In this document: one piece after another, positions 13,717 through 32,992 of the stretch
Position numbering within the stretch: position 1 is the first letter of the stretch
Layout of the letters: every line of letters starts with the position of its first letter
From: a virus
IMG/VR virus record: IMGVR_UViG_3300028898_000117
Strand: one strand, 5' to 3'
Length of the DNA stretch: 64,000 bases
Program-made: the position numbers and the translations under genes
Notes under the pieces: model-generated
The model's input: the letters and a program-made list of their open reading frames with translations, nothing else
Told to the model about the DNA's origin: nothing
Databases searched by the model: none

Positions 13717-13944
13717 ATGTGGAATAAACTTTCACGGAAGAAACCAAAACCTAATCAAAGGGTCCTCATTTTCAGAGAAGGAGTGGGGGCCGTCGGAAAC
13801 AAATGGGAACACATTGATATTGCTTTTTACACAAGGCACCCATCAGATAAACGACAAATGTGTTTTGCAAATCAAATAGAAGATCATAGCGCCTGGGTGT
13901 ACGACAGCGTGACCTATTGGCAGGAGCTACCGGAGAGACCATGA
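13717..13944 (+). CDS. DUF551-like protein
   Basis: The sequence MWNKLSRKKPKPNQRVLIF...VTYWQELPERP follows the DUF551 pattern (W...P...vL...thWmpLPepP). Confidence 0.45.
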   Translation: MWNKLSRKKPKPNQRVLIFREGVGAVGNKWEHIDIAFYTRHPSDKRQMCFANQIEDHSAWVYDSVTYWQELPERP

Positions 13945-17294: not shown

Positions 17295-19094
17295 ATGTCA
17301 GGCAAAGAAAAAGATTTCTCTGATTTATTCGCTCAAGCGTATTATGCTCGCATTGCCGCACTGGACCCCGCTTTAAAAAAATATCCAAGATTGTTTTTTG
17401 CAATCGCATACCATCGAAACATTTATGCAAAGCCGATGGAGTTCCACGACAAGCCCTATCTGATGGATATTTATAGGGACGATGCACATGAAATTGTACT
17501 GAAATCGTCGGTACAAACTGGTAAGTCTGAGTTTCTCATCATTTCTGCTCACAGTTGGGCCGAGCGTGGTTTGCAGGTTTTATATTGTCTGCCGACTATT
17601 GATATTCGTAACCTGTTCGTGGCAAATCGCGTTGACAGATTGTATAAGGAAGTCCCTCACTACTATGAAAGTGTCAGAGGAACAGATCAGCGCGGGTTGA
17701 AACAGTTCGGTGATAAAAACGGTTCGATATTTTTCCTTGGATCTAACTCCAGCACAACATTCATTGAAAAGCCTATTGACTTAATTATAGGTGACGAGAC
17801 CGACCGATTTGACCAGGCAAACTATGAAAAAGCTCCAGACAGGATGACCGCATCGCCTTACAAATTGTGGTATGAGGCAAGTAACCCGACTGTTGATAAC
17901 TATGGCATTGATTTTCGCTGGAGAAAGTCAGATCAGCGTGAATGGTTTGTAAAATGCCAGTCGTGCAATAAATGGCAAGCCCTTGATTGGTTCAGAAACA
18001 TCGTTGAACCGACTGACGACAATAGCTACCAGTTGATTGATACTGAATGGCAACCAGGAATGACAAGAGAGCCGAATATTTTTTGCATCCGATGTGGGTC
18101 ACCGTTAAATCGGTATGATATTCGCGGTTGTTGGGTTGCAAGACACCCATCGAGAGACAAGACACATGGCTATCATATTCATCAGTTACTTTCATCGTTC
18201 GTTTTAATTTCCTCAATGTGGGAAAAGTTTTTGGATGGTCTGCAATCCGATATTAAAATGCAGGTATTTTACAACTCACAGTTGGGACTCACCTATTCTG
18301 GTAAGGGTTCAAAAATTACCGATAGCATTTTAAATGCATGTAAAGACGACTACTTTATGCCAGTGCAAGCAGACGGATGTTTCATGGGCGTTGACGTTGG
18401 TAAAGTTTTACACGTCGTTATTTGGCAGCTTGTCCATGGCGGCAGAATGAGGCTTGTGTTTGCTGGTACCGTGAAGGAATTTGAGGATCTTGATTATTTA
18501 TTCGCCAGATTTAATATAATTTCATATTGCCTGGATGCGATGCCAGAAACTCGTAAATCAATGGAGTATGCAAAAAAACACATCGGGCGCGGGTGGGTTT
18601 GTCGTTATCATAATGGACTGACTGAAATTAAAAAAGATGAAGAAGAACGTGTGCTTAGTGCTGATCGAACGATGATCATGGACCGAGTTATGAGCTGGTT
18701 TGTTGGCAGAAACTTTATTTTGCCACAAAATGCCCACACGCTCGATAAAGGTGATTTTTATTCGATGCTGACAACTCCAACGAGATTTTTTGAAGAGGAA
18801 AAGCAGCAGTATTCATGGCAAGGGGACCCAGATCACTATTTCCATGCTATCGTTTACTCATTGCTTGCTTATATAGCTCGTGGTGATTTTGCGACGTTAT
18901 CTGTCGATATTCACTCACCGCTATCAAGTGCTAGACCACAAATGGACCCAGACAAATTACCAAAAAATTTCGAGCAAGCAGTTCCAGGGGCATTATTTCC
19001 ACCAGGAACGCCAGAGCATTTAATAAAGCATTATCAAAATCTTTTTAAAGAGATGCAGGATAGAGTAGCAGCGAGTAAAATAGTTAAAGAATAA
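17295..19094 (+). CDS. terL: terminase large subunit (GpA-type)
   Basis: It has Walker A-like SSVQTGKSEF, Walker B LIIGDETDRF and the internal zinc ribbon CQSCNKW...CIRCGSPL typical of lambda GpA-family terminases. It is followed by the portal gene. Confidence 0.85.
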   Translation: MSGKEKDFSDLFAQAYYARIAALDPALKKYPRLFFAIAYHRNIYAKPMEFHDKPYLMDIYRDDAHEIVLKSSVQTGKSEFLIISAHSWAERGLQVLYCLPTIDIRNLFVANRVDRLYKEVPHYYESVRGTDQRGLKQFGDKNGSIFFLGSNSSTTFIEKPIDLIIGDETDRFDQANYEKAPDRMTASPYKLWYEASNPTVDNYGIDFRWRKSDQREWFVKCQSCNKWQALDWFRNIVEPTDDNSYQLIDTEWQPGMTREPNIFCIRCGSPLNRYDIRGCWVARHPSRDKTHGYHIHQLLSSFVLISSMWEKFLDGLQSDIKMQVFYNSQLGLTYSGKGSKITDSILNACKDDYFMPVQADGCFMGVDVGKVLHVVIWQLVHGGRMRLVFAGTVKEFEDLDYLFARFNIISYCLDAMPETRKSMEYAKKHIGRGWVCRYHNGLTEIKKDEEERVLSADRTMIMDRVMSWFVGRNFILPQNAHTLDKGDFYSMLTTPTRFFEEEKQQYSWQGDPDHYFHAIVYSLLAYIARGDFATLSVDIHSPLSSARPQMDPDKLPKNFEQAVPGALFPPGTPEHLIKHYQNLFKEMQDRVAASKIVKE

Positions 19095-19108: not shown

Positions 19109-20878
19109 ATGGCAAAAAAACAAGTTCAAAGCACAGAGCTACCAACAATACCAAACCCAGCAGATATGGAAGCACAGAGGCAGCAGAAGCTTCAGAGCAT
19201 GATCGGATTTGACGATGTGCTTAAATGGTATGCATTGGGCCTGGCACCTACTTCACCGAGAATACCAGAGCAAGCTACACATTACGGTAGCATGTTTGGT
19301 GCCTATCCAAAGGGTTTTACCAATAAGACTGGTGCAAAGGGTACAATAAATTTTTATAGCCTTCGCGAAGTGTTCAGAAGATCGCCATTGCTATCGGCAA
19401 TCATCAGTCGAAGGAAACATCAGGGCGTAAGACATGCGAGAACTGCAAGCAAAACTCAGCGTGGTGATGTTGGCTTTAGGGTAACACACAGACACTCAGG
19501 GGAGCGAGGCTTTAAAATTCCTGAAGGATTTAAAGCATTAATGCGCGAAAGCGAACAAATGATTTTGCGACCATGGCGAGTGTTCTGGGACGATGGGATT
19601 GTTTTTCAGGATGTTGAACCAAACATGGCTGGGTTCATGTCTAAAGTTATCGAGGATTTACTTGTCATCAATCGACCATGTATTGAGCTTGGACTTGATG
19701 CTTTAAATACTCCCAGAGCCTTTGGTGCAATTGATGGCGCGAATGTTGTTCCTACTTTTTCGGCGCTGAAATACCTTGCGACAATTAATAAGGACATGCC
19801 TAGAGATTTCATGAATAACTGGTCGAATTATCGACGAAATTTACAAATGATGTCTGATAAATACAAGGTCGATTTGGACGAGAGAACTGAATATATTTAT
19901 TTGACCAATGGACGACCGACAGCAGGTTTTCGTCACAATGAATTGATTGTTGCTCCGCAATTTCCAACAACAGATGTGAAGTATGTTGGTTACCCGCCAA
20001 GTATGGTTGAGGCATCTATTCACATTATTTTGGCTGAAATTTTAGCCATGAAGGGTAACTCAGTATTTTTCGAGTACGGTCAGATGGCCGAAGTTATTAT
20101 TGCGGCAAAGGGAAATCAAAAAGACCAGCACATCACTAATCTGGTGGATATTTTAAAATCCAACATGAGTGGTGTTATGGGAATGCACAGAGTCCCAGTG
20201 ATCGCAACACCTGGCGGTAAAGAGGACATTGACGTTATTCCTCTGAAGAAAAATGCCAACGATATGCTTTTTGATATTTATATTCAAAAGCTTACAAACT
20301 TGGCCTGCGCCGTATTTTCCATGCACCCGAGCGAAATCAATGAAGCTCCAAGAGCAGGTGACAATAGCGGTTCATTAAATCAGGCGAGTCAAAGTAAACA
20401 AATCAACATGGCACAAGAGCAAGGCCTTGAGGCAATGCTTGAACACATTAAGACTTCTATTTTCGACCCAATACTTGAGAGAATAGACCCAGATTTGTGT
20501 CTTGAGTGGGAGTATGGTGAATCGGAAGCTGAAAAACTTGATCTTGTCACAAAATATGGGACTATCTCAACAGTAAACGAAAGACGCACAATGATGGGGC
20601 TTGACCCTATTTCAGAGGAGGACGGCGGCAATGTCATCGACAATCAATTTATCCAACAACAAAAGCAGCAAGAGCAACAGGCAGAACAAGCCTCGCAAGC
20701 AGAGGGGTCTACTCAACCTGGGGGAAGCCCTGAAGTCTCTGGATCTAAAGGAAAATCCAAAGCTGGCAAAAATGATAAGCAAAAGCGAGCAGAAGAGGAA
20801 GTGGATTATGAATCAGAAACACCAGAAGAACGAATCGAAAGACTCGTTAGACGAAATTCGTCCAAGACACAAAGGTAA
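19109..20878 (+). CDS. portal protein
   Basis: 589 aa, directly downstream of terL, with an acidic/basic disordered C-terminal tail. The call rests on position and size. Confidence 0.7.
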   Translation: MAKKQVQSTELPTIPNPADMEAQRQQKLQSMIGFDDVLKWYALGLAPTSPRIPEQATHYGSMFGAYPKGFTNKTGAKGTINFYSLREVFRRSPLLSAIISRRKHQGVRHARTASKTQRGDVGFRVTHRHSGERGFKIPEGFKALMRESEQMILRPWRVFWDDGIVFQDVEPNMAGFMSKVIEDLLVINRPCIELGLDALNTPRAFGAIDGANVVPTFSALKYLATINKDMPRDFMNNWSNYRRNLQMMSDKYKVDLDERTEYIYLTNGRPTAGFRHNELIVAPQFPTTDVKYVGYPPSMVEASIHIILAEILAMKGNSVFFEYGQMAEVIIAAKGNQKDQHITNLVDILKSNMSGVMGMHRVPVIATPGGKEDIDVIPLKKNANDMLFDIYIQKLTNLACAVFSMHPSEINEAPRAGDNSGSLNQASQSKQINMAQEQGLEAMLEHIKTSIFDPILERIDPDLCLEWEYGESEAEKLDLVTKYGTISTVNERRTMMGLDPISEEDGGNVIDNQFIQQQKQQEQQAEQASQAEGSTQPGGSPEVSGSKGKSKAGKNDKQKRAEEEVDYESETPEERIERLVRRNSSKTQR

Positions 20879-21128
20879 AGTTGTCTGGTTCGATGGGGTG
20901 AAGGGATTTGGGTTTATCAAGCCAGATGATGGCGCTTTAAATGATAACAAGGATTTGTTTGTTCATTATCATCACATCGTAAACAGACAGTCGTATAAAT
21001 CATTAAAGCAAGGCGATGAAGTTGAATTTTATTTGGGACAAAACTCAAAAGGTAAATGTGCTTCAGAGGTAAAAATCATCAAGCCAATTGAGCTTGTGGA
21101 GGAAAAAAGTGAGGCTGTTCAAGTCTAA
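20808..21128 (+). CDS. cold-shock domain protein (CspA family) with basic N-terminal extension
   Basis: The stretch GKVVWFDGVKGFGFIKPDDG...DLFVHYHHI contains the RNP1 (KGFGFI) and RNP2 (FVHY) motifs. ATG 20808 follows GAGGAAGTGG and overlaps the portal 3' end by 71 nt. Confidence 0.8.
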   Translation: MNQKHQKNESKDSLDEIRPRHKGKVVWFDGVKGFGFIKPDDGALNDNKDLFVHYHHIVNRQSYKSLKQGDEVEFYLGQNSKGKCASEVKIIKPIELVEEKSEAVQV

Positions 21129-21828
21129 GGACATGCAGAAACATTTGTTATTGATTTCGCGGAAACCTAAAAAAAAGTACGCAAATCAGGAGCAGAAGCA
21201 TCATTATGTTGAGGCTGTGAAACACTATCGCTCATACAAAAATGCGATGAAGTCTCGTGATGAGCACAAGGCTGAATTGCATGCACAAGCTGTGCGTGAT
21301 CATATCGCATCAGGGAAATTGACAAACTGGCATAGAGATCAAATGCAGCACGACTCCAGGTATTCAAAAGAGGCATCTGGACACAACTTCACTCCGTATA
21401 AAAAAATACCAAGGAGCAAAAGATTGAAAAAAGGTCTTTTGGGTGACTATCGAAAATTTCATGAAGACAGGATAGATCATCATTTATCAAAACTGAAAAA
21501 CGCCAAGGTTGGCTCTCCCGAGCATTGGTACGCTCACGATATGGTAAAGCATCATCGACGAATGTTGTCTCGAATAGGGGTGAATAAATTGAAAAAAAGC
21601 ATACTTTTAAAGGCCAAAAAGCCAAGCATGATGGAGAGGTACAGACACCACAGGCGATTAACAGTAGAGCATTTTAAAAAGCACGTTAAGGACCCACACA
21701 ATAAAGAGCACATGAAAAATGCAAAACATCACTCGAAAAAAGCCCAGCAGATTTGGGATAAGTTAAACAGCATGACTCCAGCAAGAGTTGTGGTTAAAAA
21801 AGTGACTAGGAAATTGAGGAAACCATGA
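21109..21828 (+). CDS. very basic His/Lys-rich helical protein
   Basis: Stretches such as KHHYVEAVKHYRSYK, DEHKAELHAQAVRDH, RYRHHRRLTVEHFKKHVKDPHNKEHMKNAKHHSKK show the composition. The start is uncertain: TTG 21088, GTG 21109 after GGAGG, or ATG 21133. Confidence 0.55.
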   Translation: MRLFKSKDMQKHLLLISRKPKKKYANQEQKHHYVEAVKHYRSYKNAMKSRDEHKAELHAQAVRDHIASGKLTNWHRDQMQHDSRYSKEASGHNFTPYKKIPRSKRLKKGLLGDYRKFHEDRIDHHLSKLKNAKVGSPEHWYAHDMVKHHRRMLSRIGVNKLKKSILLKAKKPSMMERYRHHRRLTVEHFKKHVKDPHNKEHMKNAKHHSKKAQQIWDKLNSMTPARVVVKKVTRKLRKP

Positions 21829-22229
21829 TTGGAAATTTTGCTATTGTACAAAATGCATCTATTCCTTGGCTTGAGGTAAATCTCACCAAGAATGGTATTT
21901 TGCCAATGCAATTTCAAGCGCCATCATTTGGCTGCTCTGATAAAACATTGGACCCTAATTGGGTGGATTTAACTGATGCTGAGAATGTGATTTTTGAAAT
22001 GTATAAATGCGGCAGGACTCCACTGAAAATTGGTCTTTCTGGACAGGCTGAAATAGTTGACTTGGGTGGTGACCTTGGAAAGAAAACAGGGCTTGTTCGC
22101 TATAAATGGCATCCAAACGACACATCTGTTCAAGGTTGTTATTATGGTCGGTTTGTTGTGACATTCAAGGATGGAACTATTTTTAAGTGGCCCTATGCTT
22201 TAGAATCAATGACAATCGAAGTAAAATAG
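21825..22229 (+). CDS. hypothetical beta-rich protein
   Basis: 134 aa with ATGA coupling. No domain recognised. Confidence 0.55.
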   Translation: MIGNFAIVQNASIPWLEVNLTKNGILPMQFQAPSFGCSDKTLDPNWVDLTDAENVIFEMYKCGRTPLKIGLSGQAEIVDLGGDLGKKTGLVRYKWHPNDTSVQGCYYGRFVVTFKDGTIFKWPYALESMTIEVK

Positions 22230-22235
22230 GTGTTT

Positions 22236-22538
22236 ATGTTTCCGAGTTGGTTTGAGAAGGCAGAAAAAAACAAATTGCAACAAGTTACTGACGATCAAAA
22301 CGCCAGCATGCAAGGCTCTTACGTTGATCATGATTTTACCCCATACCAATTGAGGCAATCGCTTGAACCTCTTCACGGAGAAGAACTTGAGGCTTTTAAT
22401 TGGGTGATTGCTAAAATGGAAAAAGATCATCCAGGTCTGGACTCATTGAAGGATTTGATTGATGCGGCTTTTGATGCTGGCTGGTTTACTTATGGTGACC
22501 AGGGAGAACTTCGAGTTGTTAATGAGGCACCAGAATGA
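22236..22538 (+). CDS. hypothetical protein
   Basis: The start is ATG 22236, or GTG 22230 as in the track. About 100 aa. Confidence 0.5.
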   Translation: MFPSWFEKAEKNKLQQVTDDQNASMQGSYVDHDFTPYQLRQSLEPLHGEELEAFNWVIAKMEKDHPGLDSLKDLIDAAFDAGWFTYGDQGELRVVNEAPE

Positions 22539-22540
22539 AG

Positions 22541-23329
22541 TTAATTAACTTTATTTCTTATTTTAACTGGAGTAGTAAGAGCTTTTTCAATAGACCATTT
22601 TCCAATGCGTATTCTATTAAGAAGAGTCATATATGGAATTCCTGTTTCTTCAGACCATCTTTGAAGATTTTGAGATTTGCCATTAAAGTAAATGGATTTT
22701 CTATCATGAAGTTTGATTTTCTTAAAAAGATGTACGGACAAAACCTTGTCAATTGGCCATTTTGCTTTTATTCTGTGATAAATAATTTCTCTAGGTATAC
22801 CAATTTCTTTAGACCATTCGGTTACAGTTTGTTTTTTTCCGTTAAATTCAATAATTACATTACTTCTACGGTTCAAGCACTGCTTGTCATTTGGTATCCA
22901 GCAACAATTATCAGGAGTGTAATTTCCGTCCACATTACGACGCTCGATGGTATGTCCAGGTGGTCTCGGACCCATGTCATTGATAAAATTTTCAAAACTA
23001 TTTTGCCATCGTTGGCAAACAGAAATACCTCGACCTCCGTATCTATCGAAGGCAATGTTTTTTGGATTGGAACATCGTTGTTTCATTGCCATCCATGTTC
23101 TGTAAGTAGGACTATTGGTGTTATTATGTCCATGGCTAGATTTTCCTGGGTTGATACATCCACACGATTGAGTAGGATTTTTCTTTCTCAAAGAATGTCC
23201 CCTGACAGCAACTATAACTCCACAATCACATCTACAGGTCCAAACGGAACCATGTTTGTAAGATTTTGCAGGGGCAATAACCAACAATTGTCCAATTTTT
23301 TGTCCTATCATATTTTTAGAGGTAGCCAT
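22541..23329 (-). CDS. homing-endonuclease-like DNA-binding protein (degenerate HNH/AP2-type core plus two C-terminal HTH repeats)
   Basis: The sequence CRCDCG...SCGC, SPTYRTWMAMKQRCSNP...YGGRGISVCQRWQNSFENFINDMGPRPPGHTIERRNVDGNYTPDNCCW is a recurrent phage family. The tandem C-terminal repeats are FNGKKQTVTEWSKEIGIPREIIYHRIKAKW and FNGKSQNLQRWSEETGIPYMTLLNRIRIGKW. The gene has its own GGAGAG RBS and sits on the opposite strand to all its neighbours. Confidence 0.65.
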   Translation of the reverse strand: MATSKNMIGQKIGQLLVIAPAKSYKHGSVWTCRCDCGVIVAVRGHSLRKKNPTQSCGCINPGKSSHGHNNTNSPTYRTWMAMKQRCSNPKNIAFDRYGGRGISVCQRWQNSFENFINDMGPRPPGHTIERRNVDGNYTPDNCCWIPNDKQCLNRRSNVIIEFNGKKQTVTEWSKEIGIPREIIYHRIKAKWPIDKVLSVHLFKKIKLHDRKSIYFNGKSQNLQRWSEETGIPYMTLLNRIRIGKWSIEKALTTPVKIRNKVN

Positions 23330-23352
23330 GAACTCTCCATGTGTGGTGCATT

Positions 23353-26300
23353 ATGATTATATTAGATTTATATAAGTCTAGAGTTAGGCACCATTTCCGT
23401 AGACTTCCAAATGGTAAGATAGTAGCCGTAAAAGAATATTTCAATAAAAAACAAGCCGCAAAAAAGGAACCAAAAAAATTTCGCCATAAAGTAGTCCATG
23501 CTGATGAAGAGTCAACTACCTATGTGAATCATGAAGGTGAGATGAAAACATATCCTCACCGATCACACATGGAGTTAACTCAAGACGACATTCACGGAAA
23601 ATTAAATTCGGCCATGCACATTGATGAAGGACTTGCATTTAAAGTCTGGGCCAATGAGCAGGGCATTACTGACATGAACAAGTTTCTTGACGACATGGTT
23701 TCCGATGAAAAAAAGCGTTCGCAGGAAACTGGCGAGGACCCAGAATTTACAAATCGAACAACGGCCATGAAATATTTGTCCAAAAATACTTTAAAAGAAG
23801 TATTGAAGGACCTGCATGGAACTTACGGCGAAGTTACCACATACGCTAGAGCTGGGACACAATCTGAAGGCGGTAGAGGAAGGCTGGCTGAATATTTTCA
23901 CGATATGGCCGATGCCGAGCATGCAAATGATGAAGATAGAGCGATTGGCAAAATGGTTTCGCAACATGCTGACACTGCAATTAAAGCTGCCGAAGAAGAA
24001 ATTGCCTCGATCAAGCAAGCTCAAAAAGCAAAGCCTGAAGATTGTCCAAAGATCGACTCAATTTCACCTGATTTAAAGTTTTTCGGACATCAAGCCCATA
24101 CTCTTGCGTACACTGACAAATTAAAAAAGGCGATCATGGACGTTGATATGGGTGGTGGTAAAGGACTTTTGCTACCAGCAGATGCCTTAAATTTCATGTC
24201 AAAAGGATTAGTGAAAAAACCTATCATAGTTGTCCCAGGCGCGACCCTTGAGCAGAATGCAAAAAAAATCCTTGAGTACACTAATGGTGAAGTGAATGTG
24301 TTCAATATTTCAAACTCTCGCATCAAAGAGCACTATGAAGGCGACATGGATAGGTTACTTGAGGACATTCACAACGCTCCTCCAAATACAATTTTCATGG
24401 CATCTTATGATGTGTTTCCATACCAGGATAAAAGCAAAAAAGCGCAGCAGAGTGACGATATTGAAATGGCAATGGATTTCCCTCGAGCAAAAGCTCTAGG
24501 AGCTGCTGGATTTGATTACATTGCTTGTGATGAATCACACAACATCAAGAATACGCAGTCGCAGCGATTTAAGGCTATGCAGTACATGACTCATCTGCCT
24601 TATAAGAGATGTGCGTCTGGTACATTCCTATCGAACAATCCAAAGGATGTTCTTGGTCAGCTCATGTTTTTACACCCACACATGGCCATGCGTGAGGCTG
24701 AATTTCTTCGCATGTATGGAATGGAAGAAACTGGCGGCGTAGGTGGTGGTATTAAATGGGATAAGGACAAATTAAAACAACTTCGAGAAGACCTGAAAAA
24801 CATGGGTATGATTTCCCTTAGAAGGTCAGCTTGGATGCACCTTTTACCAAAACGAAATGAAATTCCTAGAATTGTTAAAATGACTCCAAGCCATGAAAAA
24901 ATCCATGAGGCTATTTTAAATGAAGTTATCGACGACATTGAAGAGGAAATGAAAAAAAATCCTCGCATTAAAAAGTTTTTCGACGACGACAACGACTTTG
25001 ACGATGATGAGATGCCGCCACAAGTGTTGGGGCCATTGAATTTACTTCAATCAGTCACCGATCATCCAGATGAGCTTGCAAAAATGATTGAGGAAAAACT
25101 TGAGGCCGTTCACACAAAACGAAAAGAACTTCGCAAAAAAGGAATCACTGGCCAAGAGGCTGTTGAGGCCATGGAAGAAGAAGATCCAGAAGTAGCTTTA
25201 ATGCGTGAACAATTAGCACGAATGAAACCTGAAGTGAAAAAAGCTGTCTTATCTTTGAAGGGTATTGTTAGCCCGAAGGCAGTCGATTGCTATAAGGCCA
25301 TGGATGAGCATTTTGCCAATAAGAAGAACGGCAAATTTATGGTTTTCGTGCAAAGGAAAGCGTCAGCTAGGCACATTATGGACAATATGCCAGAAAAGCA
25401 CAAAAAAAATGCCATGTACTTCGATGCAAGCCAAATGCACAAGCTACCAGAATTTACTCAAGACCCAAATGGTCCGAAAATATTAGTCGCAGTCGATGCC
25501 TCGATCAAAGAGGGCATGAATATGCAAATCGCAAACGGCCAATATCGCTACGATCATCACTATGTCCCAGGCAACCAAGAACAGGGCTACGCTCGTATAT
25601 GGCGCTTTGGTCAGGATAAGGATGCAAATATTCATCTTGGCATTGTTGATAACGGAATAGATGTCACAAAGTACGCAAGACTGATTTCAAAACTTCACAC
25701 GAATATGATGGTTATTTCCGACATGGAAGATGACGACACATTCCTGGCCTACAAGCTTAACCTCGACAATATCCGAAACAATCGACACGCATCAGTTCTT
25801 GATGATTATTTCGATATGAACAAAAAGATTTTGGATTTCCAGAAGGGTGAAAATAAGGACCTGCAAAAGCTATATGGAAATAAAACTTATCAGCGGTCTA
25901 GTGGAAAACAAATAGGCGGTAAAAAGGCACAACCAAAGCATGGAATGGGCACATATCAAAGCGATGAAAAATTTGAAACAGAGTCGGGTGATGTGAAGGT
26001 TACTCCAAAGGAAATGGATAGCTTGCTTGGTCACTTGCGAGATCAGCACTATAAAGCTGGGCGACCTGATGTGATTTATGATGATGAATTTACTTTTGAT
26101 TTTTTAAATCACGCCTTCAAATTACTTCTTCGTCACAAGGCGCGTGGCGGTGGTGAAAAATTGGACCCATTCACTATGGAAAAATATAACTCCGATCTTG
26201 GGGGAGAATTATCAGATAGGGAACAAAAAACCCTCGAGGGAGCTATCAATGCTCACTTGTCTGGAAAGAAACACACGCCCCACACGAAACACGACACGAA

Positions 26301-26607
26301 ACCAGCCGTCGATGCTTACCTGAACACATTCAATATGAAACTACCAGCATCGGCCAAGAAAGAAGTGCATGATGATGCCGTGGAACTTTCTAAATGGATG
26401 GAGAGCAAAAAGATAAAGCCTGAGTTTGATAAAAATGGAAATGCCACGCCTTCATTCGCTGCGAAATTAAAGCCTTTCTTTAAAGGTGAAATGCCGAGTG
26501 CGAAGGGACTTAAATTGGTTGCCAGTATTGCTGGAAAGATCAATGAGGTTAAGGGCGGCTTTGCACCATTGAAGGAATATTTTGAGGATTGGGTAGAGGA
26601 GGAGTAA
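23353..26607 (+). CDS. SNF2-family helicase/ATPase with long N- and C-terminal extensions
   Basis: Motif I is DMGGGKG, II is ACDESHNIKN, III is SGTFLSNNPKDVLGQLMFL, V is EGMNMQ and VI is YARIWRFGQ. The start is ATG 23353 or GTG 23341. Confidence 0.8.
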   Translation: MIILDLYKSRVRHHFRRLPNGKIVAVKEYFNKKQAAKKEPKKFRHKVVHADEESTTYVNHEGEMKTYPHRSHMELTQDDIHGKLNSAMHIDEGLAFKVWANEQGITDMNKFLDDMVSDEKKRSQETGEDPEFTNRTTAMKYLSKNTLKEVLKDLHGTYGEVTTYARAGTQSEGGRGRLAEYFHDMADAEHANDEDRAIGKMVSQHADTAIKAAEEEIASIKQAQKAKPEDCPKIDSISPDLKFFGHQAHTLAYTDKLKKAIMDVDMGGGKGLLLPADALNFMSKGLVKKPIIVVPGATLEQNAKKILEYTNGEVNVFNISNSRIKEHYEGDMDRLLEDIHNAPPNTIFMASYDVFPYQDKSKKAQQSDDIEMAMDFPRAKALGAAGFDYIACDESHNIKNTQSQRFKAMQYMTHLPYKRCASGTFLSNNPKDVLGQLMFLHPHMAMREAEFLRMYGMEETGGVGGGIKWDKDKLKQLREDLKNMGMISLRRSAWMHLLPKRNEIPRIVKMTPSHEKIHEAILNEVIDDIEEEMKKNPRIKKFFDDDNDFDDDEMPPQVLGPLNLLQSVTDHPDELAKMIEEKLEAVHTKRKELRKKGITGQEAVEAMEEEDPEVALMREQLARMKPEVKKAVLSLKGIVSPKAVDCYKAMDEHFANKKNGKFMVFVQRKASARHIMDNMPEKHKKNAMYFDASQMHKLPEFTQDPNGPKILVAVDASIKEGMNMQIANGQYRYDHHYVPGNQEQGYARIWRFGQDKDANIHLGIVDNGIDVTKYARLISKLHTNMMVISDMEDDDTFLAYKLNLDNIRNNRHASVLDDYFDMNKKILDFQKGENKDLQKLYGNKTYQRSSGKQIGGKKAQPKHGMGTYQSDEKFETESGDVKVTPKEMDSLLGHLRDQHYKAGRPDVIYDDEFTFDFLNHAFKLLLRHKARGGGEKLDPFTMEKYNSDLGGELSDREQKTLEGAINAHLSGKKHTPHTKHDTKPAVDAYLNTFNMKLPASAKKEVHDDAVELSKWMESKKIKPEFDKNGNATPSFAAKLKPFFKGEMPSAKGLKLVASIAGKINEVKGGFAPLKEYFEDWVEEE

Positions 26608-27617
26608 TGAGCTTACTCAAGCCTTTAACTAAGCGTGAAGTATTGATTTCTGGTGGTTCAAAAATTACCTCAATGGGTTCGCAACGAAAAATAAAAATGA
26701 ACAAAATCATTTCTGATTCTCTTGGTTCGTCGAGCGTGGAGCAGGTTGCACATCGTTTAAAAAAAGAAGTTGGTTCTAGGTCTGACAAAAAGCGCGACTG
26801 GGTGAATGTTGCGATCACTGAAAAAACAAATGCACAATCAAAGGCAAGCCTAGATTTAATTGAAAGTGTTTTTGGACCAGAGGCAAAGGTCTACAGAAAA
26901 GCTAATCCAAAATGCTGTCCACAATGTTTATTTGCTTTTGGAAATCCGAAAAAGCCAAAGATTTTTACTATTTCAAAGATACCAGACAAGTTGAGATTCG
27001 CTGTTCATCCAAGGTGCGTATGTGGACCATGGAAGGCAATTGAGGTCCCAGATTTAACCAAGTCGATGAATGATGCATCTTCATACGATCTTGGAGCTGT
27101 TGTTAATGATAATGGCATTTTGATGATTTCTGTCGGCAGTTTTTTTGCCAGCATTGATTCAGTGGTTGGAAAAGCCATGATCAAGTACGTTTTATTGAAT
27201 ACGCCTCTTGTGAAAATCGGAGAGCAAGAAGGTTTTGATATGTTTCGACATGGCACTGTGATGAAAAATGATTTTAAAAATGAAATACCATCAAAAATTC
27301 AAGTGTGTGACATCATGAACATATCCGATCTTAGGTTTTACAAATCAAACACCGAGCTTGATGTGTTGAAAACAAAAACATTCGACGATTATCTGAGCTG
27401 GACCATGGAAATGATACCTCATGTGGCCGCTATGCCTGAAATGTGGTCTAAAGAGAGTATTAGATATGTAAACGACTTCCTTGCGTTTAAAACCATAACT
27501 GACTGGGTGATTGCAGCTCCACACAGGGACAGATCAATGAAAACATTGAAAATTAACGATGCACCGAGGAAAATAATAAAGAAATACGTCGTAAAAAAAC
27601 TCGAGGGTTTAGCATGA
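26607..27617 (+). CDS. possible MuF/SPP1 gp7-like minor head protein
   Basis: The stretch KCCPQCLFAFGN...RFAVHPRCVCGPW resembles the CxxC...HPnCRC signature of gp7-family head morphogenesis proteins. It is TAATG-coupled to the SNF2 gene. Confidence 0.4.
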   Translation: MSLLKPLTKREVLISGGSKITSMGSQRKIKMNKIISDSLGSSSVEQVAHRLKKEVGSRSDKKRDWVNVAITEKTNAQSKASLDLIESVFGPEAKVYRKANPKCCPQCLFAFGNPKKPKIFTISKIPDKLRFAVHPRCVCGPWKAIEVPDLTKSMNDASSYDLGAVVNDNGILMISVGSFFASIDSVVGKAMIKYVLLNTPLVKIGEQEGFDMFRHGTVMKNDFKNEIPSKIQVCDIMNISDLRFYKSNTELDVLKTKTFDDYLSWTMEMIPHVAAMPEMWSKESIRYVNDFLAFKTITDWVIAAPHRDRSMKTLKINDAPRKIIKKYVVKKLEGLA

Positions 27618-28711
27618 TTTTAATGAAGTCAAAATCATATCCAGTTGGAACTGTGAGAAAAAGGAAAACTGGAAAATGGATTAAACGTCAAACTGGACAC
27701 TGGCAATTACTTCGCGAAATTGTGTCAGATATTCATGCTCAAGATGACGTTCATCCAAATTCAAAGTCAGCAAAATTAATGCACACAGCAGCTCGAGATG
27801 TGGTTCGCCACGCAAGCAAGCATCGCATTGGGTACAGTCGTGAAATTGCACATCGTTTTCTTGAAGATAAGTATGGTCACCATGGATTTAAAGCCTTATG
27901 GAAACATCGAACAGTTGAGGCGGCAGAAAGATACATAAAAGAAATGGAGGCCGCTCACGCTGGAAAAACTGTTCACACTGAAAAAGCCAGCGCAATTCAA
28001 AAATGGCTATCTGATGTAAAAAATGAAATGTCCTTATTGAAAACCGATGCCGAACGTGACCAATGGGTTTCTGAGAAATTCGCAGCGAAGAAAAAGCCAA
28101 TTGGACACTTGCTGTATGCTTGCAGACAAATTTTAGGACCAGGAACTCACCTATCGACTGTCCCAGACAGTGGTTTCCGTGGGCTATGCAAAGCCATCAT
28201 CACAAAAGCCTATGAACATGGTCCATCTGGTATTGATAAATTCCAAATTGGAATATGGAATAAAGCCTTCAATACCATGTTTAAAAATGCTGATGTAAAA
28301 GATCAGAGAGTGGTGCCATTGTCGAAGGCTTTATCTTATGGAGATTCCAAGGTTTTTTACAAAAAACATCCAAAATGGTTTGTGTATTGTTGCACCAGAT
28401 TTGCTGGAAAAAATGATGGCATGGTCAACATGGGAGCGATTGAAGGGTACATGAAAAATGCCATGAGAAAACATGGTACTAAAAACCCGCCGTCACCAAC
28501 TTATGATGACCAAGACGGCATCATTCAATCATCAATCAGGATGGGAATGCTCGACCCAAATAAAGTTTTAAAAATGTCTAAAAAGCGTTTTATTCAACGT
28601 AAAAAAGCAATGGAACGAGTTTATCGAAACAAAAAGCGACTGAAAAAGAGCAGTTCTTTATCTTTGGTTATTGAAATTGCACAAAATTTACTTGGGGGCT
28701 TGAATGGGTAA
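27614..28711 (+). CDS. basic Lys/His-rich protein
   Basis: 365 aa with ATGA coupling, containing stretches such as HTAARDVVRHASKHRIGYSREIAHRFLEDKYGHHGF and a KKRFIQRKKAMERVYRNKKRLKK tail. Confidence 0.55.
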   Translation: MILMKSKSYPVGTVRKRKTGKWIKRQTGHWQLLREIVSDIHAQDDVHPNSKSAKLMHTAARDVVRHASKHRIGYSREIAHRFLEDKYGHHGFKALWKHRTVEAAERYIKEMEAAHAGKTVHTEKASAIQKWLSDVKNEMSLLKTDAERDQWVSEKFAAKKKPIGHLLYACRQILGPGTHLSTVPDSGFRGLCKAIITKAYEHGPSGIDKFQIGIWNKAFNTMFKNADVKDQRVVPLSKALSYGDSKVFYKKHPKWFVYCCTRFAGKNDGMVNMGAIEGYMKNAMRKHGTKNPPSPTYDDQDGIIQSSIRMGMLDPNKVLKMSKKRFIQRKKAMERVYRNKKRLKKSSSLSLVIEIAQNLLGGLNG

Positions 28712-29036
28712 AAAAGCAAAATTCGACCTTAAGGAAATGATTGAAGAACATAAGAATTTAATTCGAGTACTTCGCTCACCTAGCCACAAGGATGATTTAA
28801 AAGAGGCGAAGAAACAGTCAAAAGAATTGAAACATTACAAAAAGCTGAATAAATCCATGGATGAAGTGTATTCATACACTGGTCCCATGACCGCAGCAGA
28901 TGTCACCGTTGCCTCATGGAATGAGTACTTTGCTGAAGGCGGGATGCTGAATCAACCAGCACATCTGGCCAACAATCGACTTCATGAAATTCGCAAGCAG
29001 TTTGAACTGCTGTCTAGGTATCATAAAAAGAATTAA
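28704..29036 (+). CDS. small basic helical protein
   Basis: 110 aa containing EEHKNLIRVLRSPSHKDDLKEAKKQSKELKHYKK. Confidence 0.55.
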   Translation: MGKKAKFDLKEMIEEHKNLIRVLRSPSHKDDLKEAKKQSKELKHYKKLNKSMDEVYSYTGPMTAADVTVASWNEYFAEGGMLNQPAHLANNRLHEIRKQFELLSRYHKKN

Positions 29037-29105: not shown

Positions 29106-29879
29106 GTGTTGAAAACAGTGGAAAACCAATTTTTTATTAAACACGACGGTACATTCAATGCCCATTTTGGGGATGTGATTTTGAAGGCCGAGAAAGTCGG
29201 TGACACCGAGGGATGGCATTTTTCAGCCGTTGCCTCAACCTCTGATAAAGATAGAGAGGGCGAAACTTTACTTCAAAAGGGCTTAAACTTCACCCCATTT
29301 ACTGACTCTGGAGAATACAATTGGAATCACATGAGTCACGCGATGGTTGGGGTGCCAGTAGGTAAGAAGGCCTGGTTTGAAAACAATAAGTGGATGTGTG
29401 AAGGAATGATCTTGAAAGATATGCCTATTACAAAGGGCTATTCGACTAATGAGGTTGTCCAGCAACACAATACACTTAAGAAGTCAGGACTTCAGCGTGG
29501 ACTTTGCTGCTCGGTTGAGGGCAAGGTTATTGAGCGAAGTGATGATGGAAAATATGTTAAAAAGGCCGACATCTATAATATTGCGCTCACATTCCGGCCA
29601 GTAAATCCAAACTGTTCATTAACAATGCTTGCAAAAAGTTTGGATAAGGGCGCAGAATTATCAATCAATGATGAATTTTATAAAGCGTTATCAGTGCAAA
29701 ACATTGGTTCGTTTATGAAAGAGGACCTTGAGGGTGCATCCAGTAAAAAGGAAAACCTGGGCCGCAAACTTGTTAAACACCTCGTAAAAAAGGGTTTTAG
29801 TGAGGCAGATGCGACAATTAAGGTCTATGATTTTATGAAAAATAAGCTGCTGGGCATGGGGTCCGGCGGTAAAAAGTAA
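29106..29879 (+). CDS. prohead protease (HK97/S78-like)
   Basis: The motifs FSAVASTSDKDREGETLL, NWNH and IALTFRPVNPNC resemble the prohead serine protease pattern. The gene lies directly upstream of the scaffold and capsid genes. The start codon is uncertain (GTG 29106). Confidence 0.6.
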   Translation: MLKTVENQFFIKHDGTFNAHFGDVILKAEKVGDTEGWHFSAVASTSDKDREGETLLQKGLNFTPFTDSGEYNWNHMSHAMVGVPVGKKAWFENNKWMCEGMILKDMPITKGYSTNEVVQQHNTLKKSGLQRGLCCSVEGKVIERSDDGKYVKKADIYNIALTFRPVNPNCSLTMLAKSLDKGAELSINDEFYKALSVQNIGSFMKEDLEGASSKKENLGRKLVKHLVKKGFSEADATIKVYDFMKNKLLGMGSGGKK

Positions 29880-29891
29880 GAGGAGGCTCTG

Positions 29892-30743
29892 ATGAAAGAA
29901 GAGAATTTCGACGAGCTTGCATCTGAATTGGAACAAAAGCTTGGACAGCAAAAGGAAGAAACTCCTGCGTCTGCTCCAGCCGAAGAACCAAAAAATGATG
30001 CAGGTTTGATGAAAGCTCTCATGGTAGCCGCCAAAGACTATTTTGGAAAAGCACAGTCCTCGGATCTGAAGGCTGAGAAGGACAAACGAGGTTCTCTCAT
30101 CGACTCTTCCGACGACCCTGCTAAATCTCCAAAAAAATCTGGAGCAGGTTATCCTGACTCATCTAAGTACGAAGCTCGAAAAGGGCATGAGGACGAAGAT
30201 GAGGATGAGGAAGAAGAAGAAATGCCAAAGCATTTCAAAAAGAAAAGTCATAAGAAAAAAATGAAAAAATCTTATGACGAGGTTGATGAGAATGAAGAGG
30301 GCGAAGAAGGCGAAGATGAAGTTATCGACGCTACTGAAGTCCTTGAGGACCTTCAAAAGTCCGTTCAGCTTATCGAAGAAGGTATGGCTACATTTGGTGA
30401 GTTACTCACTGCAATGGCTGACCCTCGCCGAGAGAAGAACGAGGCTTTGATTTTGAAGGCTCTTACTTCAATCATTGATCGTCAAGATAAGATCGAAAAA
30501 TCTTTAGCGGAGGTTCAACCTCTTGTTAAGGCGATGTCGAGTTTGCCAGGGGTTCCCAAGGCGGTTCAGTCAATGACTCTAAACAAGTCAGAGACTACTG
30601 AGGGCACAGGTGAGCAGAGTGGTTTGTCTCCAGAAGACAAAAACCGACTGTTCAATGCAGCCGTTAAGGGGAAAATTTCAAAATCTGAGATGAAGAAAGC
30701 AATCGACACGAACGATGCAAGTATTCTTCAGAAGATCAAGTAA
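29892..30743 (+). CDS. scaffolding protein
   Basis: An acidic, helical, low-complexity protein (EDEDEDEEEEEMPKHFKKKSHKKKMKK) lying between the protease and the major capsid gene. Confidence 0.5.
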   Translation: MKEENFDELASELEQKLGQQKEETPASAPAEEPKNDAGLMKALMVAAKDYFGKAQSSDLKAEKDKRGSLIDSSDDPAKSPKKSGAGYPDSSKYEARKGHEDEDEDEEEEEMPKHFKKKSHKKKMKKSYDEVDENEEGEEGEDEVIDATEVLEDLQKSVQLIEEGMATFGELLTAMADPRREKNEALILKALTSIIDRQDKIEKSLAEVQPLVKAMSSLPGVPKAVQSMTLNKSETTEGTGEQSGLSPEDKNRLFNAAVKGKISKSEMKKAIDTNDASILQKIK

Positions 30744-30754
30744 GGGGGTCCTAA

Positions 30755-32341
30755 ATGTTTACAGGACAGGATGCAGAGATTCTTGATCGTGTGAGAAAAG
30801 CCTTATCGGTTGACTCCGCGACAGGAACATCAATTGCTCCCTTCATGAAAGAAGACCTTGAAGCAGAGGCTTATGTACAGCTTTACGCTGATACTGACCG
30901 CGCTGAGATGGCTCTTCTGAAGGATATGCCTCGACAACCAGCAAATCAAGTAAACCACGAGTTTACTCTGGTTGATCGTTACGGTAACCATAAGGCGAAG
31001 GCATCGTTCCGCGCCAATGGCTTGCCTCCGCAATCCAACATTGAGGGAACAAAGAAAAACGTGCAGTTAAAACTGTACGGAAAGACAAGCGCAGTTCAGG
31101 GCTTGACTGTGTTGCAAAACACAATCAAAGCAATGGGCCAACCAGACATCGCGTCAGCTAATGATGCGTCAGTCAAGTTGCTCATGCAGTACCAAATCAA
31201 TGCTGATTTGTACATGGCTGATACTCGCACTACTCTCGATACAAACATCTTTAAAGGATGTTGGCAGCTTATCGACGAGTTGACGAAAGACCCGTCTGCC
31301 ACTGTTCCATTTAGCAATAGTGATATTTTCATCGACATGCGCGGTGAAGCACTTTTGCCAGATGGTCAGAAAGGTATTCGTAAAGCGGCTGTAGGCTTCA
31401 CAAAGCGTCATGGCGTTCTTCGCAGAATTTACATGGCACCTGAAGTGCTCGAGGTTATTGAAGAGAATCTCGACCCAGCAGCTCGTTTCATGATTACTCC
31501 GCAAGACGCGAATCGTGGAATGATTATCGGTAACAGCATTGACGGCATGAGAGTGCAAGGTTCTGTGGTTCACTTCCGCAGAGACTCAGCATTATCAAGC
31601 TTTGTTCGATCTGGTGGACCGAACTCAGACCTGATTCCAGGCGCTCCAGCAGCTTTCACATTCAGTGGAAGTGCAAGTGCTGGTAACTGCTCTCAACCAG
31701 CAGTGAACGTGTCTGGTTCTGGTAAGTTCTTGGCCGCAGAAGGCATCCGTATGACAGGCTTCGTGTACATTGTGTGCGCGGTGAATGAAGTCGGTGAGTC
31801 TGTAGCGTCGAACTTGTCAAACAGCGTGAATGCGTCTGAAGGTAAGACGATTGAGTTTAACATTTATCCTCGAGGCGATGAACTTTCGTTCAGAATTTAT
31901 CGTGGATATGTGTCAGATGTAGCTCAAGCTGACACCTTCAAGGCTCCAATTATTTTGGACCCTCAGTTTATTTTTGAAGTACCAAACGGTACTTCGTTGG
32001 GTAATACCTCAACGATCACAGTAGTTGACTCTAACTTGTTCCTCCCTGGTTCTTCTTGGGCATGGGGAACGGACATTTTCTCAGAGAACGCTGCTGCTCT
32101 TGATCGTGGTGACGCTCCTACAAGCATCACCAATGAGTATGTAGAAGGCCGTTCTTCTGCGGCAGTCGCTCAATTGACAGGAATGTTCGAGTTTGACCTT
32201 GCAAAACTTGGATGGTTGCACTCAAACAAACTTTTCGCACATGTCTTGGCGCCTCAAGTGCCTCGACCTTGGGTGAATGTTGTTTGGTACAATATCGGAG
32301 TTGTGCGTCAGAAGGCATTACTTGATCGTCGTCCGTCATAA
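30755..32341 (+). CDS. major capsid protein
   Basis: 528 aa, positioned after the protease and scaffold genes and followed by a strong terminator. The call rests on position and size. Confidence 0.65.
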   Translation: MFTGQDAEILDRVRKALSVDSATGTSIAPFMKEDLEAEAYVQLYADTDRAEMALLKDMPRQPANQVNHEFTLVDRYGNHKAKASFRANGLPPQSNIEGTKKNVQLKLYGKTSAVQGLTVLQNTIKAMGQPDIASANDASVKLLMQYQINADLYMADTRTTLDTNIFKGCWQLIDELTKDPSATVPFSNSDIFIDMRGEALLPDGQKGIRKAAVGFTKRHGVLRRIYMAPEVLEVIEENLDPAARFMITPQDANRGMIIGNSIDGMRVQGSVVHFRRDSALSSFVRSGGPNSDLIPGAPAAFTFSGSASAGNCSQPAVNVSGSGKFLAAEGIRMTGFVYIVCAVNEVGESVASNLSNSVNASEGKTIEFNIYPRGDELSFRIYRGYVSDVAQADTFKAPIILDPQFIFEVPNGTSLGNTSTITVVDSNLFLPGSSWAWGTDIFSENAAALDRGDAPTSITNEYVEGRSSAAVAQLTGMFEFDLAKLGWLHSNKLFAHVLAPQVPRPWVNVVWYNIGVVRQKALLDRRPS

Positions 32342-32370
32342 TTGACTGAGATGAAATTTTAGAGAGTCGA

Positions 32371-32400
32371 GGGGAGAGAAATCTCCCCTTTACTTTTTCT
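32371..32400 (+). terminator. rho-independent terminator after capsid gene
   Basis: GGGGAGA-gaaa-TCTCCCC hairpin followed by TTTACTTTTTCT. Confidence 0.7.
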
Positions 32401-32933: not shown

Positions 32934-32964
32934 TTTACAAATTGTGATTTGTGATAAGGTATAG

Positions 32965-32992
32965 GGGAGGCATTTTTGATGTCTCCCTTTTT
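32965..32992 (+). terminator. rho-independent terminator
   Basis: GGGAGGCAT-ttttg-ATGTCTCCC forms 9 bp including one G:U pair, followed by TTTTT. Confidence 0.55.

Follow-up and report, generated by a model that had tools for sequence, protein, structure and literature searches.

A conserved SNF2 and MuF-like gene set in the head module of an uncultured virus as a candidate genome-delivered complex

To our knowledge, the proteins that travel with phage DNA, and the way they are chosen for packaging, are known for few models, namely the internal proteins and Alt of T4, the Dar proteins of P1, the virion RNA polymerases of N4 and phiKZ, and the cargo of crAss-like phages. P1 DarB is a large head protein of the SF2 helicase type, which protects or processes incoming DNA and is loaded via other head-associated proteins; the dar genes lie outside the P1 head-gene cluster. 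The T4 internal proteins and Alt carry an N-terminal capsid-targeting sequence of ~10 amino acids (aa), which is removed by the prohead protease. Here, we analyse four adjacent genes (positions 23341-29036) in a stretch of 64,000 nucleotides (nt) of IMG/VR virus record IMGVR_UViG_3300028898_000117, hereafter the window, taken from a contig of 93,576 bp of an uncultured tailed phage of ~90 kb. They encode an SNF2-family ATPase, a MuF-like minor head protein and two basic proteins, and a previous reading of the sequence alone had proposed that they form a capsid-delivered takeover or anti-restriction module. Elsewhere, MuF has been described as a head component fused to delivered effectors, and SWI2/SNF2 as a hub domain of polyvalent proteins encoded beside virion genes, with SNF2 ATPase and N6A-methylase forming the commonest polyvalent dyad (PMC5512222). 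Moreover, phiKZ heads package a predicted helicase (PMC13282480).

The interpretation best supported by our analysis is that the four genes encode what would be a conserved head-associated complex. Most likely, the SNF2 motor enters the capsid and reaches the host together with the DNA, and we estimate at about 50% the probability that it is packaged and acts on incoming DNA. The four genes are as follows.

23341-26607, plus strand: SNF2-family ATPase (Pfam, phrog_62), 1088 aa from a GTG start or 1084 aa from the ATG at 23353
26607-27617, plus strand: MuF-like minor head protein, 336 aa from the ATG at 26607 (342-aa open reading frame (ORF) from a TTG at 26589)
27614-28711, plus strand: basic protein of 365 aa
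28704-29036, plus strand: basic protein of 110 aa

The 1084-aa form of the SNF2 protein is the entry P0002 of the public protein set. Successive genes of the block overlap. The SNF2 stop overlaps the start of the 336-aa gene in GGAGGAG-TAATG and the stop of the latter overlaps the start of the 365-aa gene in GCATGA, so that the TAATG and ATGA couplings noticed earlier are both present in the sequence; the ORFs of the 365-aa and 110-aa proteins overlap by 8 nt in ATGGGTAA. The last two proteins are basic, as had been said of them, with isoelectric points (pI) of 10.1 and 9.6, and the pI of the MuF-like protein is 9.6.

The SNF2 translation holds all the motifs listed in the sequence-only reading, DMGGGKG, ACDESHNIKN, SGTFLSNNP, EGMNMQ and ARIWRFGQ (within QGYARIWRFGQ). 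It matches the Pfam domain SNF2-rel_dom (PF00176) over aa 260-541 with an E-value of 4e-16 and 59.4 bits, over the cut-off of 24.9, and phrog_62 with an E-value of 9e-42. The Helicase_C score of the window protein (17.7 bits) is under the cut-off of 23.5; Helicase_C (PF00271) is recorded in many of its orthologs, and the family profile aligns the C-lobes of Rad54 and ERCC6. When a profile of 17 orthologs was compared with PDB, it matched SsoRad54 (1z63, 3e-18) and also DDM1, ISWI, INO80, CSB and other double-stranded DNA (dsDNA) translocases. Motifs I, II, III and VI are invariant in the 17 orthologs, as are the catalytic residues K270, D393, E394, R748, R751 and Q754 (P0002 numbering). By sequence, the SNF2 protein is predicted to be an intact motor.

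A total of 34 homologs of the SNF2 protein were found at E<=1e-10, of which ~28 belong to the family (34-63% identity); these metagenomic members are mostly 1,064-1,236 aa long and lie on contigs of up to 85-96 kb. One ortholog on an 84-kb contig, P0013, was deposited as 'MAG: SNF2-related protein [Pseudobdellovibrionaceae bacterium]', a label that may be a binning artefact or a host clue. The protein consists of a conserved N-terminal region (aa 1-~250, starting LYKSRVRHHFRRLPNGKIVAV), the core (~250-800) and a tail (~880-1088). Neither the N-terminal ~250 aa nor the C-terminal ~290 aa has a credible Pfam match (best 0.018, well under cut-off). The family has its own conserved basic, hairpin-like motif at the N-terminus, LIKAxVKGHYRxLPNGxIVxI. 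The tail, the boundaries of which were taken from fused relatives (see later), is found only in lineages where MuF is a separate gene, and could possibly dock the MuF-like protein. In five relatives (P0009, P0019, P0026, P0027 and P0028; also in loci L022 and L024), the SNF2 protein is interrupted by inteins with Hint and intein-splicing domains. Their start was read directly inside motif II (VALDE/C...) in P0027 and P0028, and BLAST coordinates place the inteins of the other relatives at the same spot. In the window, the SNF2 start is preceded, at a distance of 12-24 nt, by a gene for an HNH endonuclease in the opposite orientation; no relative has this gene at the same place, and it is a selfish element that does not belong to the module. 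The inteins in motif II (DE^SH) and the adjacent HNH insert fit with SNF2 being a conserved and important gene.

The MuF assignment of the 336-aa protein was below the sensitivity of direct scans, which gave nothing in Pfam at E<=10, nothing in NCBIfam at E<=1 and no usable PHROG match, and a word-indexed protein search returned only the protein itself. An exhaustive phmmer search of 1.84 billion representatives retrieved 59 proteins, including ~20 full-length orthologs. The tail of this search (E 1e-7 to 1e-3) aligns with aa ~20-125 and consists of proteins that carry inorganic pyrophosphatase, PolyA_pol, Zeta_toxin, ddrB-ParB or ADP-ribosyltransferase domains. The Pfam family Phage_Mu_F (PF04233) was reached by 4 of 34 distant phmmer matches (best 4e-8), and 3 of 22 orthologs match it on their own (down to 4.3e-5). 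When the 336-aa family was aligned with the family of MuF-effector proteins using hhalign, a probability of 99.6% was obtained (E 1.1e-24) over 126 columns spanning RDWxRVAxTE, CxxC and HPxCxC. The AlphaFold2 model (17 sequences; mean predicted local distance difference test score (pLDDT) 87.7) has two domains. Foldseek found no neighbour of this model in PDB; its top matches in BFVD are annotated 'phage head morphogenesis domain', 'MuF-like minor capsid protein' and 'capsid maturation protease and MuF-like fusion protein' (probability 1.00, E 3e-4 to 2e-2, ~160-200 columns).

Profile homology and fold matches together support MuF membership at the level of the domain, and the 336-aa protein appears to carry a divergent MuF/SPP1 gp7-type domain, as first proposed from its cysteine and histidine signature. 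That signature, CCxxC...HP(N/R)CxC(G)PW, is invariant or almost so across the 22 orthologs. The predicted domain covers aa ~15-145 (nt 26649-27041) and is followed by a family-specific alpha/beta domain (~160-336).

The other two proteins gave no usable match in Pfam, NCBIfam or PHROG and have no polyvalent-protein (LPD) domain. The 365-aa protein, which has 12 homologs besides that of the window, begins with a basic module (aa 1-41, nt 27614-27736) and a variable, His-rich helical region, and contains a conserved C-domain (365C; aa 126-299, nt 27989-28510), preceded in some relatives by DUF5661 (2.3e-10). Its AlphaFold2 model is all-alpha (pLDDT 74); BFVD offered no neighbour for this model (best E 0.38), and PDB no sequence-profile match for the protein. 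The 110-aa protein ends in a conserved motif (110C; aa 57-107), GPM..D...SWN.YF.EGG.LN.P.WL, and its C-terminal 50 aa are kept in every locus covering that position.

We then compared 13 loci: the window, L004, L005/L020, L008, L009, L014, L015, L016/L018/L019, L017, L021, L022, L023 and L024. Their SNF2 proteins are 34-63% identical and the portal is 53-64% identical in relatives. The genes for portal, a cold-shock-domain (CSD) protein, a 134-aa protein, a 102-aa protein and SNF2 follow each other in this order in 13/13 loci and, where the contig continues after SNF2, MuF, 365C, 110C, protease, scaffold and major capsid protein (MCP) come next. In every locus covering this interval, SNF2, MuF, 365C and 110C are never lost and their order is kept. 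Such conserved order of orthologs across 13 independent metagenomic loci indicates that the four are not chance ORFs, and the four modules form a core that is constant throughout the lineage, not an accessory set that varies. The close relatives are uncultured myoviruses of ~85-96 kb, and no near-identical DNA was found in cultured phages.

Some of these relatives have the four modules fused. SNF2 and MuF form a single chain (SNF2::MuF) in P0021, P0023, P0024 and P0025 and in the fragment P0043, the SNF2 part of which aligns with aa 13-~900 of the window protein. In L008 and L009, which belong to the SNF2::MuF clade, 365C and 110C are fused as well, in one protein of 209-216 aa. The four genes of the window thus correspond to two genes in a sister clade, which suggests that their products act together.

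Among cultured phages, a tblastn search of 50,697 phage records with the SNF2 protein gave 52 matches, all at <30% identity, and those listed or inspected are in phages of 190-314 kb. These cultured homologs are proteins of 1,528-1,969 aa that have only the SNF2 core in common with the window. The family profile gave E-values of 2.7e-69 for phiRSL1 ORF129 and 9.6e-43 for PaBG gp202, with a range of 1e-53 to 3e-69 for phiRSL1 and Motura, and for BcepSaruman gp088 the link came from BLAST alone (E 7e-32). The giant SNF2 gene of phiRSL1, Motura and BcepSaruman is located between the portal ('head-tail connector') and head maturation protease genes, flanked by small genes and with the MCP gene a few genes further. 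PaBG_00202 (1,969 aa) lies 3.6 kb downstream of the gene for the head-to-tail joining protein. Its product, gp202 (221 kDa, 'RuvB helicase-like protein'), is band 1 in the structural proteome of CsCl-purified PaBG particles (PMC7412058 Table 1). This proteome, the only experimental evidence on virion association and one that concerns a distant homolog, suggests together with knowledge of MuF and polyvalent proteins that the window proteins travel with the genome.

The window genes had also been seen as the split form of a giant polyvalent protein. This holds only for SNF2 and MuF and for 365C and 110C, which are joined in the sister clade; the jumbo-phage giants have the SNF2 core alone in common with the window. 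The 336-aa, 365-aa and 110-aa proteins as pieces of these giants were rejected, since there is no BLAST similarity. Profiles of MuF, of 365 and of the MuF-effector fusions (A3) found nothing in the jumbo-phage loci, where the SNF2 profile aligns with the core only, and the portal, protease and MCP of the window have no BLAST-level similarity to their jumbo-phage counterparts. We found no literature on phiRSL1 ORF129 in virions (the single 'ORF129' match concerned a different phage), and nothing relevant on BcepSauron and Y3. A small HNH gene on the same strand recurs between the portal region and the SNF2 giant of jumbo phages (phiRSL1 ORF122, Motura gp179, PaBG_00199, BcepSaruman gp091 and Illi2_00134).

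In a published comparison of jumbo phages, their SNF2 helicases were proposed to take the place of UvsW during recombination-dependent replication (PMC7824862). The SNF2 protein could then be an ordinary UvsW-like recombination or replication helicase, encoded in the late region by chance, not associated with the virion and functionally unlinked to MuF. Some distant homologs do lie beside ligase, gyrase or DNA polymerase genes, and the relative P0031 carries a LigD 3'-phosphoesterase domain. At locus L010 (2001-14227), the SNF2 homolog (33% identity) has a C-terminal LigD 3'-phosphoesterase domain and follows a GNAT-containing giant of 2,588 aa. However, this explanation is unlikely in view of the natural SNF2::MuF fusions in four relatives, the invariant position in the head module at 13 loci, the presence of PaBG gp202 in a structural proteome and the absence of replication genes among the window ORFs scanned around the block. 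In all close relatives, SNF2 belongs to the head module and not to a replication module, as expected from the sequence-only reading. None of the refuting outcomes that this reading had named, and that can be assessed by computation, was observed.

The surroundings of the block in the window are as follows.

17295-19094, plus strand: large terminase (TerL), gpA-type (Pfam GpA_ATPase 1.3e-21)
19109-20878, plus strand: portal, upstream boundary of the head module kept in relatives (PHROG portal families down to 1e-16)
20808-21128, plus strand: CSD gene, from a likely ATG at 20808 (ORF from 20601; Pfam CSD 1.6e-18, phrog_729)
21133-21828, plus strand: His/Lys-rich protein, 231 aa from a likely ATG at 21133 (246-aa ORF from 21088)
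21825-22229, plus strand: 134-aa protein, kept in relatives
22230-22538, plus strand: 102-aa protein, kept in relatives
22541-23329, minus strand: HNH homing-type endonuclease, 262 aa (phrog_374 3.6e-66)
29106-29879, plus strand: prohead maturation protease, downstream end of the block (phrog_1028 6.4e-28)
29892-30743, plus strand: acidic scaffold-like protein
30755-32341, plus strand: MCP (phrog_752)
32369-32390, plus strand: strongest terminator-like hairpin downstream of the terminase start
32963-32989, plus strand: second strong terminator-like hairpin
43826-45976: tail sheath, among the downstream genes, where baseplate genes are also present

The block had been described as wedged between portal and protease. 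It does lie inside this interval, and the genes for the protease (phrog_1028), the acidic scaffold-like protein and the capsid protein (phrog_752) directly follow it as described, but it does not abut the portal: five ORFs (~2.4 kb) intervene, encoding the CSD, His/Lys-rich, 134-aa and 102-aa proteins and, on the minus strand, the HNH endonuclease. The CSD gene and the 3' end of the portal gene share ~70 nt, read in different frames, and this arrangement of portal and CSD, kept in most relatives and often overlapping, recurs in L005, L014-L018 and L020-L024. The His/Lys-rich protein (pI 10.6, 10% His, 18% Lys) has no family match, and homologs of it are present only in L017 and L021, at the same position. 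The 134-aa and 102-aa proteins, which have no PHROG match, are always encoded ahead of SNF2 in relatives. A plus-strand ORF of 273 aa (22535-23356) was rejected as a gene, being a shadow of the HNH gene.

Between the terminase start and the MCP end, the only plus-strand terminator candidates are minimal stems of 5-7 pairs. With nothing but such stems before the hairpin at 32369-32390, the string from TerL to MCP, including the four genes, reads as a single putative late transcription unit. Further downstream, the sheath and baseplate genes indicate a contractile tail. Upstream, a scan of the 10 largest ORFs within 17 kb showed no core replication gene, in agreement with the earlier remark that none lies nearby; the ORFs that could be identified encode a nucleotide kinase, a pyrophosphatase, an endonuclease V and an endolysin-like protein. 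Accessory genes in this upstream region include those for a metallophosphoesterase (4192-4944, minus strand), a nucleotide kinase domain protein (6269-7279), a pyrophosphatase (8254-9012) and an endonuclease V-like protein (13917-14495). Upstream of the terminase, relatives have genes of known anti-defence or regulatory types, encoding Tad2-like, Acb2/Tad1 hairpin and CsrA proteins (L014 2903-3223, minus strand; L016 1170-1577 and 2240-2422), and a pair of genes for a polysaccharide pyruvyl transferase and a glycosyltransferase is present in L005, L008, L009 and L015.

Around the four constant modules, the content of the slot that follows MuF varies between loci.

Window, L004 and L017: 365-aa and 110-aa proteins only
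L021: additional 508-aa protein
L005/L020: 86-aa protein; 1,637-aa protein containing a UvrD helicase as well as a weak zincin-like region
L015: 162-aa, 186-aa and 1,218-aa (UvrD) proteins; CAP-domain gene on the opposite strand
L016/L018: 592-aa, 520-aa and 323-aa (alpha/beta hydrolase) proteins
L022: 529-aa and 324-aa proteins
L023: 461-aa and 1,751-aa proteins

The giants of the slot (1,218-1,751 aa) are encoded at L005 14619-19532, L015 15330-18986 and L023 12804-18059. Those of L005 and L015 have 2-3 copies of a 40-aa module and a C-terminal helicase of the UvrD/Dda type (phrog_1967 6e-100), and the weak zincin region of the L005 giant is LPD1-like.

This 40-aa module is present at the N-terminus or at internal domain borders of many otherwise unrelated slot proteins. 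It is strongly basic, with the consensus hhhKAKxxP(V/I)GTxxKxxDGxYxKxxxxxWxK. A hidden Markov model (HMM) was built from 17 instances, none of them from the window, and searched against 1,833 six-frame ORFs (194 thousand amino acids, 194 kaa) of the window and nine loci. It matched only slot genes, the next best E-value being 1.6, and it detected the 365-aa protein of the window (1e-17), the N-terminal leader of the L014 SNF2 protein (1e-8) and a third copy in the L005 giant. The restriction to the slot holds in IMG/VR loci too, and a tblastn search with the module gave no match in the 50,697 phage records. The module was rejected as an instance of a Pfam domain: there is one weak match to LPD22, only in the L005 relative (E 0.14 at full length, 0.098 on the module segment), and DUF5661 adjoins the module and does not lie on it. 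At the level of sequence, the module is a solid observation; that it is an address tag, a DNA tether or a processing site is a hypothesis.

A looser motif, hydrophobic-K-A/S-basic, occurs near the N-termini of MCP and scaffold (LMKAL at aa 39 in the latter) and near the C-terminus of the protease. The N-terminus of MCP, VRKALSVDSATGTSIAPFMKEDLE (30755-30850; VRKALSV...FMKEDLE), resembles the C-terminal region of the protease, FYKALSVQNIGSFMKEDLEG (29650-29760; FYKALSV...FMKEDLE), and the motif common to MCP and protease is kept in four relatives. These sites in MCP, protease and scaffold may be maturation cleavage or docking sites.

The variable content of the slot and its opposite-strand inserts (HNH in the window, the CAP-domain gene in L015) could also mean that the neighbourhood is a coincidence, with the interval between portal and protease a permissive 'moron' hotspot and the 40-aa module, very basic and present in internal copies in giants, a DNA-binding motif spread by local duplication. 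We hold this to be quite unlikely, because SNF2, MuF, 365C and 110C are never lost and keep a constant order in the covered loci, two independent fusions link the four modules, and the restriction of the 40-aa module to the slot is itself evidence of shared constraint.

Under the reading that we favour, the 336-aa MuF-like protein would be a portal-binding head adaptor, portal binding during procapsid assembly being a trait of its family, and it would bring the 124-kDa SNF2 dsDNA translocase and the basic 365-aa and 110-aa proteins into the procapsid. Late in infection, a transcript shared with portal, protease, scaffold and MCP would give rise to the four proteins, which would be enclosed with the genome and would exit with it when a new host is infected. 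Supplied with ATP by the host cytoplasm, the SNF2 motor would track along the entering phage DNA. Its most likely job would be the removal of host proteins bound to this DNA, for example nucleoid proteins or restriction complexes that track on DNA, and it may also help to reel the genome in. The stretch after MuF would act as a loading bay for extra cargo enzymes, and the 40-aa module may be an address or a DNA-tether tag. What the data establish are the domain identities, the gene order and its conservation, the fusions and the virion presence of a distant homolog; the packaging and ejection of these proteins, the substrate and role of the motor and the function of the tag are what we infer here. 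Since the four modules are universal in the lineage while their neighbours vary, we favour a basic function, either in delivery or as infection begins, by clearing or drawing in DNA, over that of a dispensable anti-restriction accessory.

Several points weigh against delivery of the SNF2 motor with the genome. A folded ATPase of 124 kDa must pass the tail channel, presumably unfolded. PaBG gp202 has ~25% identity to the window SNF2 protein, in the core only, and the PaBG study, based on matrix-assisted laser desorption/ionisation (MALDI) of gel bands, shows neither head location nor ejection (PMC7412058). Distant homologs have mixed contexts: that of L006 lies after baseplate genes, that of RHEph12 between gyrase and baseplate genes, and those of GR11A and Illi-2 near ligase and NUDIX genes. 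The lineage is uncultured, and MCP and the MuF-like protein have no tblastn match in the 50,697 cultured phage records. The HMM of the 40-aa module misses the SNF2 N-terminus in the window, as well as the MuF-like and 110-aa proteins. A simple N-terminal cleavage motif, hydrophobic-hydrophobic-K-A/S-K/R, is enriched in the window but was defined post hoc and was only marginal (p = 0.048) in a stricter test on four other loci, so that it is a lead only; its instance in the 246-aa ORF is probably upstream of the true start. Finally, late co-expression with the head genes suits a role on the packaging side equally well.

In the latter case, SNF2 would strip proteins from the concatemer or remodel its branches ahead of terminase, or would organise DNA at the portal via a MuF tether, and it may remain in the head as a passenger. 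Such a role would agree with the uninterrupted string of genes with terminase, portal, protease and MCP, with the four modules as a fixed core of the lineage, and with the action of MuF proteins at the portal (PMC5512222); the detection of PaBG gp202 in the virion is compatible with a passenger. However, the neighbouring slot gathers UvrD helicases, a hydrolase and a CAP-domain protein, which are cargo-like and have no obvious role in packaging, and MuF fusions elsewhere are effectors and toxins. We also know of no characterised tailed phage that needs an SNF2 ATPase for packaging, and consider a packaging helper somewhat unlikely.

In the analogy with P1 DarB drawn earlier, a packaged helicase would protect incoming DNA in cis by modification. 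P1 DarB is indeed a packaged methylase-helicase, and SNF2 with N6A-methylase is the commonest polyvalent dyad (PMC5512222). However, no methyltransferase domain was found in the SNF2 protein or its three partners using Pfam, NCBIfam and PHROGs, and the fused protein P0021 and the scanned jumbo giants are also without one. A mechanism of modification like that of DarB is thus not supported, this part of the analogy being largely refuted for methylation, and with the module a fixed core and not an accessory, DarB-type anti-restriction is very improbable.

A broader possibility, which we put forward tentatively, is that the interval between portal and protease is a modular cargo loader, in which the MuF adaptor and the 40-aa address module would send interchangeable enzymes into the capsid for co-injection, among them UvrD helicases, hydrolases and others, depending on the phage. 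The SNF2 protein, present in every member, would use ATP to work as an engine on the genome as it comes in, by reeling it in or by freeing it of host proteins. If modular cargo loading is true, the delivery mechanism would be one that is undescribed for any tailed phage. Should the 40-aa module prove to be an address tag, injected proteins of metagenomic phages could be predicted by a sequence rule, and there would be a handle with which to load capsids with foreign proteins. Should the motor act on incoming DNA, genome delivery or early evasion of defence would gain an ATP-driven step. Cultured systems for this question exist in the phiRSL1-, PaBG- and Sauron-like jumbo phages with their giant 'helicases'.

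That MuF can be a delivery handle, and SNF2 a hub of polyvalent proteins beside virion genes, is already published. What is new is a methylase-free SNF2 with MuF and two partners as the fixed head-module core of a whole lineage of uncultured myoviruses, the occurrence of this set in both split and fused form, the parallel in position with jumbo-phage giants, of which PaBG gp202 is virion-associated, and the slot-restricted 40-aa module on interchangeable enzymes.

Like polyvalent proteins and MuF-effector fusions, the window set combines a MuF-type head-anchoring domain with an enzymatic module and is encoded beside late virion genes; such fusions are also the distant neighbours of the 336-aa protein, and the sister clade has SNF2::MuF. 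However, the window modules are four separate ORFs, and fusion is seen only in relatives, where the multi-domain feature takes the form of SNF2::MuF (P0021, P0023-25) or of a peptidase-like region with UvrD in the L005 giant. In the MuF-effector fusions, MuF is near the N-terminus, ahead of the effector, whereas in the fused forms described here it is C-terminal to SNF2. Moreover, the window set has no methylase partner, metallopeptidase or ArdC domain, and this set forms a fixed core of the head module throughout its lineage, not a patchily distributed accessory.

The jumbo-phage giants (phiRSL1 ORF129, Motura gp182, BcepSaruman gp088 and PaBG gp202; phrog_62/phrog_21391) have the closest cultured SNF2 cores, but their long N- and C-terminal regions are unrelated to the window, and no MuF-like or 365-like gene is detectable nearby. 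The 336-aa protein resembles gp7 of Bacillus phage SPP1 and Mu F (gp30) in its fold as judged by Foldseek, in the C..C...HPNC.C signature, in being encoded downstream of the portal and in being basic. Unlike them, it is under the detection of Pfam PF04233, is separated from the portal by SNF2 and five genes, and has a different C-terminal domain, the alpha/beta one, with no evidence of a MuF-C domain of the PBECR type. P1 DarB differs from the window set by its N6-adenine methyltransferase, and beyond the generic SF2 core no relationship in sequence was found or tested for. The T4 internal proteins and Alt are a possible parallel to the slot proteins: they are unrelated, co-encoded proteins that vary between related phages and have a common short N-terminal sequence, with which the 40-aa module of many slot proteins may be compared; however, the T4 signal is ~10 aa long and is cleaved, whereas the slot module is ~40 aa long, strongly basic and also present as internal copies in the giants.

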